Assembly: GCA_000934665.2 (NCBI GenBank)
Contig: KZ538559.1
Coordinates: 1-62,088 of the forward strand
From: Catajapyx aquilonaris
Lineage: Eukaryota
Direction: 5' to 3'
DNA: 62,088 nucleotides
Below the pieces are notes generated by a model. The model did not search any database. It was not told where the DNA came from and was given only the letters and a program-made list of their open reading frames with translations. Of the stretch, positions 7,014 through 57,169 are shown piece by piece; position 1 is the first letter of the stretch, and every line of letters starts with the position of its first letter. Both the position numbers and the translations under genes were made by a program.

Positions 7014-7023
7014 NNNNNNNNNN
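7014..7023. other. Assembly gap (N10) inside a poly-C tract
   Basis: Ten Ns flanked by C homopolymers. The true length is unknown. Single Ns also occur at 26895 and 28845. Confidence 0.98.
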
Positions 7024-9303: not shown

Positions 9304-9514
9304 CAACCACGTTGAGATGGATGTAATGACTCATGTGCGGCGTTGTGCTGATCTGGCACTCGTAGATGCCCGAGTCCCTGTGCTGGGGGTACTTGATCAT
9401 GAGCGTCCAGTCCTCGGAGTGAGGCTGGTGGATGGCACGGAAGCGTTGATCACTCGTGTACGTGTACCGACCAACCGTTAGCAAGTGGATGTCGCGATGT
9501 CTGATCCACGACAC
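9304..9514 (-). CDS. dpr9: Coding exon of a Dpr-family IgSF gene, second part of Ig1 (VSWIRHRDIHLLTVGRYTYTSDQRF...DSGIYECQISTTPHMSHYIHLNVV)
   Basis: The translation carries the Dpr Ig1 signatures SWxRHRDxHxLTVG, YTSDQRF, WTLxIK and DSGxYECQ. Acceptor on minus is CTAAC...TCTTTGCCTTTTCGACCCAG|GTG, with the branch point at 9547-9543. Donor is GTG GTT G|GTAAGT. The exon is 211 nt (70 codons + 1), phase 0 in and phase 1 out. Family call is firm; the dpr9 orthology rests on recalled similarity to the fly protein and is less certain. Confidence 0.95.
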
Positions 9515-22200: not shown

Positions 22201-22304
22201 TTGAAGGGGGGAAAGACTGATCTAACGACAGACAACAACAATTAGAGGGCGGAGATGAAATACGACTAGAGATTTTCGAAACTTGAACGAACCGGCTGGC
22301 TCAC

Positions 22305-22483
22305 CGTTCTGTTGCCGAGGTTCTTGACGCGGCAGTTGAGATACGCCGTTTTGCCCAGAAGGGCCGTGACATTTTTGGAGGCCACCTTGTCAAAGAACGG
22401 ACCGGTTCTTGGGGTTGTTGAAGCGCCCACGTCCAGTCCATTGGGTTCTTTTGGACGAGCTGTTTCCTTCAGGTACGAAGACG
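22305..22483 (-). CDS. dpr9: Coding exon of the same Dpr gene, linker plus first part of Ig1 (SSYLKETARP...GPFFDKVASKNVTALLGKTAYLNCRVKNLGNRT)
   Basis: Contains the Dpr motif PxFD...NVTALLGKTAYLNCRVKNLGNxT with the first Ig cysteine and the sequons NVT and NRT. Acceptor is TGTTTTCTTGTCGTTTCAG|CG (phase 1) and donor is ACG|GTGAGC (phase 0). It joins the 9514 exon in frame as NRT|VSWIRH. 179 nt. Confidence 0.93.
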
Positions 22484-22536
22484 CTGAAACGACAAGAAAA
22501 CATTTCAATAACAATAGCCACAAAAAAAAATCGGTG

Positions 22537-22686
22537 TTGTACTCCAGAGATGGCGACACGATTCGGCTCAATATCAGTGCCTCCATCTACCAGCCAGATT
22601 TTCGTCTATTGATCATTATGCTCAAGAGATGGCGGCACCATTCGGCTCATTGTGAGTGTCGCCATCTATCGGCCCAATTTTCGTCC
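22537..22686. repeat. Two tandem copies (79-bp period) of a hairpin-forming unit with AGATGGCG arms
   Basis: AGATGGCGACACgATTCGGCTCAatatcaGTGCCTCCATCT at 22548-22588 and AGATGGCGGCACcATTCGGCTCAttgtgaGTGTCGCCATCT at 22627-22667. Both copies are followed by ATTTTCGTC. Confidence 0.9.
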
Positions 22687-25600
22687 TTTGATCCTCTCTC
22701 AGCCGCTTACACCTCCAGGTGGCCAAGACTCGGCCAAAAGCAAGCGGAAAGGCCCCATCATATGGACACCGCTCGCCACTTTCCCTATCCACAACTCTCT
22801 GGATGGAAACACGACCGTAATTCAATCTGCGAGGCAGCCCCCCCTAATGGCCGGTACATTTACGTCCCCAGCTAGCTCTACTGTGATATGGGTAGGGGAG
22901 GTTGGGGGAGCCCTGCACAGTTAGCCAGACATAGAGCAAACAAGCCCGCTGGCTGTTGTTCACTCGCAGCAGGCGACGACCGACACCAACCGCCCCCGAA
23001 AAAGCTTTGGACCACTCTAATGGAGTCTTAATACAAAGTTTGGCTCGCGCGGTCGCCTCACAAACACCTCGCCTCGTCCCATTTCCTGTCCTGCTTAATG
23101 TTCGCGTCATTGGGACAACCCTCAAAAATTATGCCCAGGTCCTTGACCCACATTTTTGAGGCGACAATGGCGGACCAACGCGAATAAATAATAATAGTGA
23201 AAAAAGGTCAATTCTGGAGGGAACAAAAGAGGATGAGGGATGAAAATATCGCTGCAACTGAGCGGTAATTTCCGATGCTATAAAACGCAGATTTATGCCC
23301 ATCGATTTGCTACAGTTCCGCTGCTGCCTGTCATAGGGGGTGGAGGAGAGGGGAGGGGGGGGGGGGAGAATTGCGAAATTGCGTTTGCGCGCCATCACCT
23401 TCACTTCAATACATCTTTTTCTGGTTGTTATGCGACGATCTTCGGGAACGGAATAACGCTCGTTTCGGATTTAGTGGGGCGAGATTCTGCATCGGGAAGA
23501 TTGGTGGTACCGGGTGTCGGAAAATGACGAGTCGAATAATGCTGCAGAAATAGGAATTTCATTTGATATGTATTTTGTGCGGTCATCAGATCAATGTTAA
23601 TGATATTCCACTGAATATTCTCCTAGGAATTAATTTTGTGTGATTTATATCCATTTCCACATTTTTACTCTGATGGGGAGGGACTCGGTCTCAAACTCGT
23701 TTTACCAATGATCTTCCAAAAGGTACAAAGTGAATTTATAATATATTTTGTCACGATTTATTTTAATTTTTAGAGTGCATAATCGACAGGTGCTCTAAAA
23801 TGCATAAAAAGTCTCGCCCCACTTATTTTGAACTGCCACGTTAAGCCTGCATTTCGATATTATATCGCATAATGTGAAGCCACTCTCTAAGGGGGGCGAG
23901 CCTAATCACAGGGGGGCAATAAAATTACTTTTTAATTAACCACTAATCCAGTAATGCATCACTCATGCTGTCAGTATCCTGACAAAAACAGTTGGCACTT
24001 GGGAGCGTACCAATGCTTTTGATACCCCTGGTGCAACAGCTCATCAGTTGAGGTTTCATCTGCATAGTGCCTATATTGCAGTGAGATCCGGCACTGCCGC
24101 AGTTTGACGCCGACATGATTTATTGTGATAAGCATTGCTTCCGGCTATGAATTTGTCACTTTTTGCCGTGATTACTTATATACAGTATACTTTCATAGTT
24201 TATTCTTTCTTGATATCAGGGTATAGTTTCCAGCAAGATAAGCCCTGCTCACACCAGCCCAGATATCTCGCACTTTCAAGGTGCAACAATTACTCGAACA
24301 AGTCGCAACATCACACCATCACCAAAACACTCCATGTGTCGGTTCGCCGCCCAAGAACGATGCCTTCCTTTTGTTAGCTCACAGTCACTTGAAAAGCCTG
24401 CCCTCCAAAATGGCTCTCTCTCCAAGTCAGTTTCTGGGGGCCTCGACGAATCCGAGTATTTTCATACACACGGGCAATACAAAAGGAGTGGATGAAGGCC
24501 CCCGGAGAAAGGAGAGGGTGGGTTTCACTGGCGCAATGAACAGTCAGTCCTCCTCCTCTCTCCAACTCCTCTCGTTCGCATTCTGCCCCAGGCTCCAGCT
24601 CCATGGCAGTCTGGAACTCATCAGCACCGAATGAGTTCTCCCCCACCACCCTGGCAAACCCGCCTTTGTGAAGTCTAGAAGCATCCCCCTTGCCTGTAGG
24701 AGACCCTGTGCACTATCCCAAAAAAAGAAGAAGGGTTGATATTGCCGGTTGGTCCTCCTGAAAAGGGTTTGGCTTTTCCGCACCAACTCACGTCCGGGTT
24801 GGATACTTCCAGGGGAGGTTGGAGCATGTGTACCGGCTTGTATGCAGTCAATCTCCTTGAATGTTAGACGCCACTTCCGACCAAGTGTGTCGGGCCCGGT
24901 TGTACAACCTTGGCGGAGGTTTTGGCAAAGTAAGGGGGGTTCTGAGAGACGCAGGGGAGCGCCCAAGGAGAGGGAGACCTAATTGGGACCGGATCGATCA
25001 GAGCCGCGCCTTGTAATAACATGTAGGCCTACCGGTGCCGGCTCAAAGTTGGTCCTAGTTATGAGGTCGATAAATTTCGGCTCGGATGTACCTGGTCATT
25101 TGTTGAAAAAAATTACCTGCAATATTCTGCAAACCATGCCAATTTTTATAAGAGTATTTAATAACCTAATCATATATGGCGACAAGGGGAGGGAAAAACA
25201 AGGAAAAAGATCGAAGCACTTGGGCTCAAGTATTCATTGCATGAGAGCAAATAGTTTTTAATGAGGTTGCTGCCATTCCTCTACCAAACTTTTCAAAGCC
25301 CCGGCGTCTTCTACTCAGTAATTTAACAGTAAGGGTACCATCACTCAAAAAATGCATTAATTAGGCAAGGAGAAGCTCCCCCTCTCTTGACTGCATTTTT
25401 GCCCTCTCCTAGATACTAAAAATCTATTCCTCCCTTGCATAAACCTCTTCCCTCAGCAACCCCTTGAAGGATGGAGATGTATATTACCGTGTATATACAG
25501 AGAGAGAGTAAAGGGAGATGAATATTATCGCCCTGGCTCTTTGAAGAGAGTCGGCCACGACATTTCCTAATGGTGAAGATGGATTGCTTCAACCAGTGTG

Positions 25601-32903: not shown

Positions 32904-33043
32904 AAAAATAGCAGTGATTATCACCACCGTCACTCAAATTAGCAGTGGTTAATAACAACTTTACTCAAATAAGCAATGATTAACACACCAGCTTGTAAAA
33001 TAGCAGTGGTTATTACTACTGTTACGCAAAATAGCAGTGATTA
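32904..33043 (+). repeat. Minisatellite, five copies with ~31-bp period, core AAATAGCAGTGRTTA
   Basis: AGCARTG starts at 32910, 32941, 32972, 33002 and 33033 (spacing 31, 31, 30, 31). Confidence 0.9.
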
Positions 33044-50600: not shown

Positions 50601-53600
50601 TGTACATAGATAAGCTGTGGAAAATCACACGCTGCCAGAATGGACTGTCCTAGATTTTTTTCTCTCTCGGACGATCGTTGTATACATGCCCTATTGAGCA
50701 CGCTAAATATATTGCCCCAGATATTATTTTAGGGCATGTCGTGGTTATCGACAATCTTATTACTCATGCTGTAGAGTGGTGGTTAAATTAATTTGAAAAA
50801 TGCATACATGGTCTTCCGCTTGCTGCAAAATTTAACAATTCAGCAACCATGAATTTGTACAAGTTGCATCGCCGCCCCACCATAAATGAATGAATACTCC
50901 AGGCTGGAAAACATGGGTTTACAATCAGTAAATTAACGCACTAGCCGGTTGCACTACATCTTTCATGCGGTACATGTCCGCCCTCAGTGTTCGCACAAAA
51001 AAGAGAGAAAGGGCCGACAATGCTCTCTGGGAGTGTGTGTTCAGTACTATCAAAAGGACACGACCAGGAGGATTTTGGTCCACGAGATCACGGCTGGGAT
51101 CAAGGGGATTTCCACATATAGGAGGACCAGAAATGAAAGCTTTTGATGACAAAATAACTGTCTGGCCCCCAACAGTTATGAATTCTACTTGCGGCTGATG
51201 TGTGTCCCCTGTGATGCGTATTCATTCCTTTCACAAAATGCAGCCGTTTGATTTGGCTTCTGTACCGAGCGAATACAACTATTCGAATTGGAAGGGAGAC
51301 TAATGCACCTAGACGTAATTATACCATGAGCTGGCCGGACACTCCCGATTGGCCAGTTTGAACACGCCCCTGGAACTTTGGGGAATTAATTACTTTAGGC
51401 TGCTTTTCCCAGGCACTCCCTCCGGTAAACAAGAAATTCCGCTGGTGAAATTACTTTCTGTAAATAGGGCTGCAATATATGTGATGCAGTGTGGTTGTTG
51501 CTATAAAGCTGCTGGGATTATGAGCGATTGTGTTACGTTAAGAAGATTGCAGAGATTCATTGGAAGTAATATGAAGTTCCACATTGATAACATTCATGTT
51601 TTTGTGCAAGTGGATTAATAAACACATTCGGCTGAGTTGATATTTCATTTGTGAAAAAAATAGTTGAATAAAATATGGTTCCCAATTTGGACAGCGGATA
51701 TGAAACTGCATATGCATATAAGATAAAATTGCACTGGAATTAATTTGTGATTACACAGCAAATAGGTCAATGAACGCTGCAGTTCAATTAAACTGTAACA
51801 ACTTTTTTACACTTTAGCACTATCCAAACAGATATACAGTATGTTATGTACACTTCCTTCCGCGCTGTTCAACAATAACCATGTTATGACTCATACTATA
51901 TGCTTTAAACTGTCAGCAAAATTTTGATTCCTGGCAGGCAAACATTGTTTGTCGCGATTAACTTCTTGATTAAGTTTGACACATGTCACGCCCGCTTTGG
52001 CAAGAATTGACGCTATCATAATCCAAACCGTGCACTGAGCAATGTAATGCTGGTGTTGTATAACCATGTCTTTTAGAGGTTAGACGACTTCTTGGAAAAA
52101 ACTTTGATTCCGTGGTCGCCTGTTCGATCAATAGTCGCTGTGTGTAGCCTTTCTTAAAGTTGGATTGCAAAATGTTTAAAACAATTATTGCGGTTTGCTC
52201 TATGTACAAATGAGACGCCCACACTCCTACAGGGGGAAAAAACACCTACACCTATATTGCTGGAAGAGAGGCGAACCTATAAGACCCAATCTGGTGCAGT
52301 AAAGCGTCGAAGCTTTAAAGCTTATCAGCCAAATACTGTTATCGTGCCCACAGTGTGAAAAGCACAGCACTTACTTCCAGCCCGATTCACTTAATGACGT
52401 ATAATTCCCCAGGAACGAAGCGAAATTGCGAAATCCGGACCCCCTCCAGCAGGCCACAGGCTCCTAACCCCCCTCCCCCCATCCCTCCCCATCGAAAATG
52501 CTTGCAGGTAACAGGCACTGCAAGACATGTAATAATATTACCTCCCCTAGCAGACTGTTCGACATGCAAAAGCTCCTTTTCAAATGTCTTTCATATTGTG
52601 TAAGAAGATGGGGGGGATCTCACGTCTCCCCAGAAAACAATTAATCAGAAAGGAATCTAATAGCATTAAGGGATCGGTTCTAAAGGAGAGTTGCGTACGT
52701 CCCTTTTCCTTGCTAATTCCGCAAGAAGAAGCAGCAATTCTCCTTCTTAGAGGAGTTTGTTTGCCTCCGGAGCAGACAGAAAGAAGAAGATTTTTTTTTG
52801 GAACAGGAATGAAGTTCGATCTTCTTGGAAACTTTATTACTCTGCGCCTAGGCTGATTAACTGTGGAGGTAGGCTTGTTTTTTTCTTCGCTAGATTTAGC
52901 AGGATATTGAGATCTTCTGAGTGAATGAGACTTGGGGGGTTGAAGGAGGGGAGAAAAGTTAAAGTTAAAAAAAAAAGTTCACAATTATCTGCACGAACTT
53001 CACTTTCTGAATGTGTCAGTAATTTCCTCCTGTTGCTCTCTACTTCCCGAGCTAATTGAAGATAAAAGTTTCGCAACTCCTGGTGGCTCACTCAATTTGT
53101 TCCTCGGTCCTACATTTTGGGAGCAACGATGCAATTTCCAGAGAGTGACTCGGTGAGACGCAATTCAGGAGGCTCGAGACAGGCTTCTTTAACATATACA
53201 AAAAAAAATCAAACGCAAGCCCAGAAGACTTGACATCCGAACCAGACCAATTTTAGAAAAAGAGGTAGATCTACATCCTATGATTGTGTTGTCTATTGCG
53301 GAAGACAGGAGTTTAAAAATGGTGTGCTTATAATGATTTAATCGATATTTTTTAAAGGGGAGAAATGATCCACATCTGGCCAAAATGAACTTCAGGTTCA
53401 GTGTTTATGTTGTTAGCTCCTCGTTAGAAATCAATATTGGTTAGGTCTTCTACATAATAATAGGCAGCTGGTTCCAGCCCAGATGATAATATAAGGCTCT
53501 AACGGCTGCTTATGCGTAGAGTTGTGCATATCTAGGCCAAACTGTAAATTATCAGTGTCTGGGTCAGTACTATTATTCTACTGTATTTTGTACTCAGCTC

Positions 53601-54271: not shown

Positions 54272-57100
54272 CGGGTTTTACTGTCACCTTTTTTTATGAC
54301 GCATGTCAGGTCACTTTCAGCAAGGGTATAGGGTGAACCAAAGTGCTGTAATGAGATACCGCTACATCTAGTACCTTTCAACTTTTGTAATGCGATATGC
54401 CCACCCAGCCCAGCATTATTTTTGAAGCACCTCAGGGTTAGCTGACCCTTCCAAAATTTTAACGCAGCTCTTTTTCACACACTATACACAGGAAGGCAGG
54501 AAATGTGAGCAATATATAGATTCTGCTATTCTTTTTGCTTTTTCTATTATTTTTTTTGTCAAATAAAACCCAGCACCCTCCAACTCAATATGTCAGATTT
54601 ATTGGAAAATGTGGTGAGTCAAGAGGGTGGTGAAACGTGTGTGCAACACAGTCACGTGTGCATATATTTGCATGAATATTATAGCTTCCAGGTCCTTTGG
54701 AAACAGGCCGAAAAGTTTCACATTTTAGTCTACTTTGCATACCACGACCGCGCAGTTCCGACATTGTACAAATGCTGCGGTTTCCGCAAAAAAGATTGCC
54801 TTTTCCCCCTTCCCTCTAGTTTCACTCCGATATACTCCGTTCTGTTGATTTGAGTTGCGCCAACTGCGTGTCCAATGACTCTACTGGAAAAGGACATATT
54901 TTGCAGGATAAAGTTCCTGAAAAGACCTGGACATATTCTTCAGATGTTTAGACTTTCATTTGAGATTCGGTCCAAAGATGCTGAAAAGAGCATGTTTTTG
55001 CTTTAGGTGTATTCATCCCCTTTCTTCGCATACACTTGAAAAGGAGGATTCTTTGACAAGCTTTATAGCCCCAGAGGCTTATTAAATTGGGCCCCAATTT
55101 TCGGAACAGGATTATTGTATACAAACATGGGTAGCTTTCCGAATGGGGAGACGTAGCGAGATGATTTTATTATGTGGTTTTGGGCACACCTGGTCGTGTC
55201 GATAAAAGGGACCAGGGGAATCCCCGCAACTCAAACAGCAGAAGACAAATGGAACTTATTTGCTTTCCAAGTCCCCCCCGCAAGGCGTCGATTTGTTTTC
55301 GTTCGTGAAAAAGACTCGAGGTTTTCTTACCGCCTTGTTAATTGAGCCTGTACCTATGGCACTCTGAAATCCTGCAAATGTGCACATCAGGAAGCGTAAT
55401 CAACAGCAAGTAGCGGTTTTCGATGCTTGTTTTAGTGCGAAAACTAACCCTTTAGCAGCTGCAATAGGTTTTGTGCGAAAAGGCAAGGAGAAGAGCTGTA
55501 AATGCCGGGGGTTAGAAGTCCCTCGAGGCGCCACTTGGCCTAATCCGCACTTCTTATTGCCACATTTCCTTCAAGGAGCCGGAAGCCTCCAGACAATGTG
55601 ATTATATCGCCCTCTTGGCCCAGGGAAAATCGGGGAATTATTGCCCCACCCTAACAATGCCACAGAATAAGCTTGTGAAACGAAATACCGCCGGGATGAT
55701 AATTCAACAGGAATAATTTATCATAAAGGAGCGCACACAAAACAGTACAGGCCGCATATAAAACCTTTTTAATCAAGGTGACGTGTAATCTGAGGGCATT
55801 AAAATGTACAGCTCTAATCAGGTTCTAGTGCAAGCAATGTTTTAAAGTGTTCGTATAAAAGATAATCTCAGTTCTTGTAGTTGCCGCTACATAAATTTTG
55901 GCAAGCCAGGTCCTGACCAATAAGGGGGGCAATAATTACCTTCCATATAGGTTGGAACCGACTTGTGAAATTGAACTCTTCGGTTCTATACCCGGGGATT
56001 ATCCACCACGCATCACAGGTTGCCAAACAATTGCGGGTGGATTTAAAGGGACTTTTTGTGCCTTTCAAAGGCTCGCGTAACACGCCATCCGCCTGTCAAA
56101 GGCTAGCTTAGTTTGATCAGTAACATGAGGAAAATTCCGGGGGAATCCCCTTTATGACCACCAGAGAACTCATGCGGCAGCAGTGCAAACTTCTGATAAT
56201 GTTTGCCTATTATGATATTTACGATCCTTGCAGACGGGACGTTCCAATAAAACTTTCCCATAGCTATATACATCCCTCAATAAATTTGGGCTCGTTTAAT
56301 ACGTCATTAATTTGATTCCCATTCCCCTGGCTGATGGGTCGCAATTATAAACCTTGCCATATATATACGGTGCTGCCTAATGATATTTGTGTCCACAAAA
56401 AAATGGCGAAATAACACCATTCATCATTCATTCATTTCGTCGCGGCATAGGTAGTTGCAAATTAAGCCTTCAACTTTTCTGAGCGTCTGGTAAACATTCG
56501 AGTTGAAAATTTCTGCATTTTCCAGCTAGCAGAGTCGCATAGCAGGGCTCCAGAGCCCTGGAAAATGTCGCCGCATGTTGTATAAAGAGTTATAGCCGCG
56601 GGGCAGTAATAACGTGGACGAAAAGGGAAAATGGGAGAAATGTGAGAAATGGACGCCATAAAAGTCGGACGGATACAACTTTTTCCCTACAAGTGCTTTG
56701 CAGGACGGAAAAGAGCTTTCACCCGTGTTATTAGCTCGAAATCAGCACTACTTGCATCGTGATAAATATCCTCCAGTCGACGTTGAGAAAAGGACGAAAA
56801 ATGGCCAAGTGAGACAGCTCACAAAAGGAGCAACAATGTGACACCAACGCCAACGGCACAAAAAAAAATCGCCTCCGTCTGCCCGAATTCTCTGATAGCT
56901 TTTAATAGCACGTGAATGCGGTACACATTTCCTACTTTTATCACACAGCTTCGGCCCGTTTACTGTCCGCCGAAAAAGCTCCTAAAGATTTATCCCGACC
57001 GTCCTCCCCTGCAATGACTTCTAATTGACAAAAATAATAAAATTGCAACGGGTGCTAAAAATGTCGTTCCAGGCACCGAAACCGGTTGGTTTCTATCGGC

Positions 57101-57169
57101 ACTTACTTGATGAGAATCGCCATCGTCTCAACGTTCAGCTTACCTGCAAGAAAAGAAAGAATAGGTTAG
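57101..57169 (-). promoter_or_regulatory. Putative recursive splice site (ratchet point) with a 37-nt cryptic exon
   Basis: Minus strand reads CTAAC-CTATTCTTTCTTTTCTTGCAG|GTAAGC with the junction at 57144/57143, then a second donor CAA|GTAAGT at 57106. Same strand as the dpr gene. Confidence 0.7.

Follow-up and report, generated by a model that had tools for sequence, protein, structure and literature searches.

A candidate recursive splice site and its putative 37-nt cryptic exon, probably within a long intron of a dpr9-like gene

The question raised by this locus is whether an acceptor that runs directly into a donor, at position 57143 on the minus strand of the 62,088-nt stretch of DNA analysed here (the window), would allow a long intron of a dpr-type gene to be removed in steps. 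The first-pass annotation had interpreted the region 57101-57169 as a recursive splice site, or ratchet point, followed by a cryptic exon. A re-reading of the minus strand reveals that all of its coordinates for this region are correct.

Anatomy and rarity of the junction at 57143

The elements of the candidate site, in the order in which they are read on the minus strand, are as follows.

57165..57169, minus strand: branch-point-like CTAAC motif, read directly; likely branch A at 57166
57148..57164, minus strand: polypyrimidine tract, 17 nt with one purine; score 8.9 bits
57144..57147, minus strand: acceptor GCAG, AG at 57145-57144; 10.5 bits
57138..57143, minus strand: putative ratchet-point donor GTAAGC, GT at 57143-57142; intron part 3.5 bits
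57107..57143, minus strand: putative cryptic recursive (RS) exon, 37 nt, out of frame; contains an ATG at 57123-57121
57101..57106, minus strand: donor of the putative RS-exon, GTAAGT after CAA, GT at 57106-57105; 5.4 bits for the intron part, 5.6 bits in full

The acceptor CAG abuts the donor GTAAGC directly, which gives CAG|GTAAGC on the minus strand. The candidate branch A at 57166 is located 23 nt upstream of the first base past the AG (57143), and the zone from the CTAAC motif to the acceptor is free of AG. Ahead of the GCAG, the stretch 57165-57148 has a C or T at 17 of its 18 positions, and a TT (57149-57148) is found at -6/-5 relative to the acceptor boundary. Scans for Pfam and Rfam families, tRNAs and repeats return nothing at or near the junction, and no repeat covers it.

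The AGGT tetramer occurs 355 times in the window (188 on the plus strand and 167 on the minus strand). When these sites are filtered for a pyrimidine content of at least 80% across 15 nt, a YAG and a donor identity of at least 5/6, the junction at 57143 is the only one of the 355 that combines a strong acceptor with a strong donor; this uniqueness had previously been claimed for the minus strand and extends to both strands. In a log-odds ranking of all 355 sites, with matrices that were set up from approximate splice-site frequencies of general knowledge, are not species-trained and serve for ranking only, the 57143 site scores 14.0 bits (10.5 for the acceptor and 3.5 for the donor), and the runner-up sites score 3.4 bits on the plus strand and 2.8 bits on the minus strand. 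At 10.5 bits, the acceptor at 57144 outscores those of both coding exons found in the window (5.7 and 5.8 bits).

A loose consensus pattern of the site matches once in the window, with 0.20 matches expected, and at least one match is present in 18 of 100 shuffles. Among windows simulated with a second-order Markov model, none of 400 contains a site of at least 14 bits and two of 400 contain a site of at least 12 bits, the top score being 13.1. This null is not too strict, as it yields the same number of AGGT tetramers as the real window (354 versus 355) and a larger number of mid-scoring sites (a simulated mean of 5.6 sites of at least 3.4 bits, versus 2). The longer motif AGGTRAG is present just 6 times in the window, and the tracts ahead of the other five copies score 0.6 bits or less, four of them being negative. 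Tracts of the 8.9-bit grade are found at about 153-305 of the 124,106 window positions. Donors of the GTAAGT grade number 12 on both strands together, which corresponds to a chance of approximately 0.013 that one is located 15-150 nt downstream. It is very unlikely that the motifs combined at 57143 came together by accident within one window; the site itself was picked after the fact, from a large scan of many windows.

Apart from 57143, the window is rather poor in mid-scoring AG|GT sites, and a second-best score this low is observed in 8 of 150 simulations. The shortage is found on both strands and is therefore not obviously the result of selection on one transcript.

The dpr9-like gene and the region upstream of its first Ig exon

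A tblastn search with five insect orthologues identifies two coding exons in the window, both of which are on the minus strand, and all further matches in the window have E values of 0.21 or above.

22305..22483, minus strand: coding exon for the first half of Ig1, 179 nt; starts in phase 1, donor GTGAGC at 22304
9304..9514, minus strand: coding exon for the second half of Ig1; tblastn E = 1e-41 to 1e-43

The exon at 9304-9514 is 92% identical to Drosophila proteins named dpr9 from several species, and its identity to orthologues of other insects is 89-96%, with a Bombyx protein at the top (96%); its match to the Pfam V-set domain has an E value of 2.5e-5, which falls under the curated cut-off. 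The exon at 22305-22483 exhibits 83-92% identity over the conserved 37-41 residues and is closest to proteins of a sciarid fly and of Lepidoptera. By the similarity of these Ig1 exons, the gene can reasonably be described as a dpr9-like member of the two-Ig dpr (defective proboscis extension response) family, and it shares its strand with the site. The view of the gene comprises the two Ig1 exons inside the window, with the second Ig domain past position 1. Protein searches with both exons return no identical protein, although many Drosophila species are represented. The source is not a Drosophila, and the ratchet-point rules from Drosophila are therefore used here by analogy.

Several side observations were made on these exons and introns. 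Four residues (I/L-N-M-Q) are present between the Ig1 half-exons in Lepidoptera and absent from the window, a beetle and several insects, which suggests a lineage-specific micro-exon or a shifted splice site. In a Choristoneura fumiferana record (P0001), the first Ig1 half-exon is present twice in tandem, which explains the odd top E value of the protein search; the doubling reflects an exon duplication or else an error in the gene model. Runs of N at 7014-7023, 26895 and 28845, 12 bases in total, are small assembly gaps in introns.

The exon that begins at 22483 is preceded by a T-rich tract and a TTTCAG acceptor, starts in phase 1 and lacks a start codon. In an alignment of 25 orthologues, the boundary at 22483 coincides with the point where signal peptides end, before a motif of the (S/G)AQRE type, and one orthologue isoform has a lone Met joined straight to this motif, as expected for an exon boundary. 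The phase-1 start and the conserved boundary require an upstream exon that ends in phase 1, and this is probably a signal-peptide exon. A scan of the window for such exons (an ATG, a hydrophobic stretch and a phase-1 donor, with loose filters) reveals 15 candidates. Nine of these are on the minus strand and upstream of 22483, and each has a weak donor; the 39.6 kb upstream of 22483 contain no signal-peptide exon convincingly like those of the orthologues. The 57143 site is on the strand of the gene, 34.66 kb upstream of the phase-1 acceptor at 22484, and because no convincing signal-peptide exon is present in these 39.6 kb, the site is probably intronic in the dpr9-like gene. In the most economical reading, the upstream exon is probably located past 62088, which would make the intron at least 39.6 kb long.

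Three open reading frames in this region were considered and set aside or rated lower. The minus-strand frame at 52469-52565 begins with an ATG, ends in phase 1 and encodes GEVI at the same distance from the Met as in lepidopteran signal peptides, a likeness that is probably due to chance; with its G-rich run and weak GTTAGG donor, it was judged unlikely to be a signal-peptide exon. If this exon were real, the start codon would be located downstream of the 57-kb site. Alternatively, the acceptor at 22483 could be read through and the protein could start at ATG 22586, in a frame that resembles a signal peptide. This alternative is rated lower, as the frame owes its hydrophobic core to translation of the T-rich acceptor tract and has its N-terminal part inside a 79-nt tandem duplication, and as the orthologues place an exon boundary at 22483. 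The duplication itself (22542-22693; 1.9 copies of the 79-nt unit, 80% matches) is immediately upstream, in the sense of the gene, of the 22483 acceptor. A hydrophobic minus-strand frame that follows the distal donor (57026-57094; 43% over 23 residues, E = 6.7, no in-frame start) was attributed to chance.

From 22.6 to 62 kb, none of the 112 open reading frames of at least 75 aa reaches the Pfam cut-off, and one of them has a sub-threshold match to DUF4250. The whole window contains no Rfam family and no tRNA. By T/A and G/C skew and by the counts of AATAAA and ATTAAA, the known intron is not separable from the region in question, and these measures do not distinguish the two strands. A 31-nt tandem repeat is present at 32905-33043 (4.5 copies, 66% matches), and no function is suggested for it.

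Proposed stepwise splicing, its consequences and competing explanations

In the best explanation of the locus, to which we give about an even chance, 57143 is a ratchet point whose 37-nt cryptic RS-exon lies in a long intron ahead of the first Ig exon in the dpr9-like gene. While 57.1 kb is being transcribed, the TTCTAAC branch site, the tract and the CAG, together with the GTAAGT, would define the 37-nt exon. The upstream exon would be ligated to 57143, by which the first intron segment would be removed and a donor of the form (exon end)|GTAAGC would be recreated. The regenerated donor would be spliced to the acceptor at 22484, which would take out the 37 nt together with the remaining 34.66 kb, and the site would leave no trace in the mRNA. 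If the distal donor at 57106 were used instead, the 37 nt would be retained, with a frame shift and a stop 43 codons later. Transcription through 57143, the use of the site and the order of these steps are what we infer by analogy with Drosophila.

The consequences for the reading frame follow from the positions of the exons. Only one of the three frames is open across the 37-nt exon, and it corresponds to an upstream exon that ends in phase 1. With such an upstream exon, a transcript that included the 37 nt would change frame and meet the stop inside the 22483-22305 exon, 87 nt before the end of this next exon and with at least one further junction downstream. The first-pass annotation had predicted a frameshift upon insertion of 37 nt, and its arithmetic is right. 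Its proposal of recursive splicing holds with respect to anatomy, strand, rarity and frameshift; a search of the window did not find the upstream exon that it presumed.

In the scoring of the splice sites, the acceptor, previously described as strong, reaches 10.5 bits. The putative ratchet donor GTAAGC does not clearly exceed the distal GTAAGT of the putative RS-exon in strength, which is unusual. The intron part of GTAAGC scores 3.5 bits versus 5.4 bits for GTAAGT, and its full score would be 7.0, 6.7 or 4.8 bits with an upstream exon ending in CAG, AAG or ACG, respectively, compared with 5.6 bits for the RS-exon donor. These near-equal donors are the sole observation that points to 57143 as an on/off switch for a synaptic-specificity molecule, an idea that had been put forward earlier and is speculation. 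In a more specific form, which we consider improbable, 57143 would act as a regulated binary switch, and the outcome would be set by the upstream exon or promoter that is joined to it. One upstream exon would regenerate a strong donor, and the 37 nt would be removed; with another, the distal donor would win, the frame-shifting 37 nt would be inserted and the message would be destroyed. If this were true, the level of a synaptic-specificity receptor would be set at a splicing step, far from Drosophila. A further, equally speculative idea is that the core is ancient; a family of seven metagenome contigs, described below, carries the same 20-mer.

The 37 nt may also be an ordinary small exon that starts with GT by chance, either a 5'UTR, alternative or poison cassette exon or part of another, unannotated minus-strand transcript such as a lncRNA, which would be spliced conventionally through the acceptor at 57144 and the donor at 57106. 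An excellent acceptor is separated by 37 nt from a distal donor that is also excellent, this donor is at least equal in quality to the proximal one, and the ATG (A at -3, G at +4) would provide an upstream start if the exon were in the leader. However, with 6 AGGTRAG in 124,106 positions, a donor of 5/6 identity right after the acceptor would be a rare coincidence in itself, and exons that begin with a donor consensus are by definition RS-exons. The exon also does not keep the frame of the coding exon downstream, and a search for an exon that bridges the ATG and 22483 yields one candidate passing the filters, which is not hydrophobic; an ordinary exon is a rather unlikely explanation. The outcome of the bridging search also argues against the idea that the 37-nt exon is the constitutive first coding exon and that the ATG at 57123 is the true start of the dpr9-like protein. 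The good context of this ATG and the encoded Met-Ala, which is like the starts of lepidopteran orthologues, are in favor of such a role, but the exon ends in phase 2 from this ATG whereas phase 1 is needed, a direct join leads to a stop, and the contribution to the protein would be just five and two-thirds codons. We regard this start-exon role as highly improbable.

Finally, the splice-like motifs could have arisen by chance in non-transcribed or antisense DNA and have no function. The site was chosen after reading, with many windows scanned; the loose consensus appears in nearly a fifth of the shuffles, the window holds no upstream exon that could be found, and the tract TTCTTTCTTTTCTT is of a low-complexity kind that arises easily. 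Against these points, none of the 400 simulated windows reaches the score of the site, the CTAAC at the right distance is combined with an AG-free zone and with a perfect GTAAGT 37 nt on (approximately 0.013), and the site is on the strand of the gene. A functionless chance assembly is judged unlikely.

If the recursive site is used, Drosophila-style recursive splicing with cryptic-exon definition would extend to another lineage and to the dpr synaptic recognition genes, in parallel with the recursive sites in long introns of vertebrate Ig adhesion genes. Weakening of a single 6-base donor should then convert a silent step into an insertion that shifts the frame, as has been demonstrated in flies for kuz and Ubx, and the site would offer a precise handle for knock-down of the gene or for natural loss-of-function alleles. 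If the site is unused, it would be a striking decoy, and the question would be how so strong a site is ignored.

Similar sites elsewhere and comparison with known systems

When metagenome contigs were scanned with the 20-base core of the site, 11 loci were returned, four of which are unrelated singletons. The other seven (L001, L003, L004, L006, L007, L008 and L011) form one family with three sequence variants, in eukaryote-like DNA with a tRNA-derived repeat downstream (about 400 nt on each side of the match). The family carries a TAAA/CTAAAC motif ahead of the core at the same distance as in the window, TGAAC just after the donor as in the window with an offset of one base, and a GTGAGT donor about 63 nt downstream. 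The core is part of a block of approximately 300 nt that is conserved where the upstream flank of one variant is unalignable. Identity between the family and the window is 80-83% over 41-51 nt around the core, of which 20 bases are forced by the search. The architecture at 57143 is thus present elsewhere as well, in what resembles a ratchet point of another organism. It could represent either an orthologue of the candidate site whose flanks have diverged or another member of a class of motifs that look alike by function.

Among the papers found for recursive splicing together with dpr, none concerns the fly dpr genes by title and abstract. The term "dpr" is absent from the available portions of the supplements of Pai et al. 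(2018) and Joseph and Lai (2021), which hold mostly S2-cell data and thus say little on this point. For insects beyond Drosophila, the available literature offers one example, from a locust, which was predicted with a Drosophila matrix and is supported by U2AF65 immunoprecipitation.

NMD-coupled poison exons are similar to the 57143 exon in that inclusion of the 37 nt would cause a frameshift and a stop before a further junction. However, poison exons need no donor at their 5' end, and inclusion of the 57143 exon is hypothetical. The Ubx exons mI and mII (51 nt) share with the 57143 exon a donor consensus right after the acceptor, and the proximal or the distal donor is usable after ligation. 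They are frame-preserving and ultraconserved, whereas the 57143 exon is 37 nt long, frame-shifting and leads to a stop.

In reviews, vertebrate recursive sites are described in CADM1, CADM2, OPCML, NCAM1 and ROBO2, all neuronal surface genes of the Ig type, together with the ideas of a "binary switch" by donor competition and of premature stops. Although these sites belong to a different phylum, their descriptions there agree with 57143 in an Ig-superfamily neuronal surface host, a YAG|GT with a downstream donor, and a premature stop upon inclusion.

The closest comparison is with the ratchet points of Drosophila. In the Duff preprint, TT is present at -6/-5 in 196 of 197 ratchet points, branch points are mostly located from -36 to -21, host introns measure 11.3-132.7 kb and the removed segments 2.6-63.6 kb, and the sites exhibit strong local conservation and a bias toward neural genes. 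Conservation of the acceptor|donor core amid poorly conserved flanks is the most powerful discriminator in print for such sites. According to Joseph and Lai (2021), each intronic ratchet point has a short cryptic exon (approximately 50 nt) that is recognised first and is generally out of frame, and the ratchet donor usually beats the donor of the cryptic exon; in kuz, Ubx and Bx, a weakened ratchet donor leads to obligatory inclusion and to loss of function, and in hth the cryptic exon is skipped despite a weaker ratchet donor. An enrichment of recursive sites in first introns is stated by Pai et al. (2018). The typical host is a long first intron in a neuronal gene, a profile that is counted in favor of the recursive reading.

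Drosophila ratchet points are known from junctions, saw-tooth coverage, lariats and conservation, whereas 57143 is known from its sequence, and its donor differs by a C at +6 and by not being clearly stronger than the RS-exon donor. The 57143 site nevertheless displays the sequence features of the Drosophila sites, namely an AG|GT abutment of a strong acceptor and donor, TT at -6/-5, the tract, and a short out-of-frame exon with its own donor. The A of the CTAAC motif at -23 falls, as a motif match, within the published branch range. The probable host interval of tens of kilobases in a neuronal gene would also be alike, and the 34.66-kb segment that the site would create and the length of the presumed intron fit the Drosophila ranges, for which reason they are counted in favor of the recursive reading.
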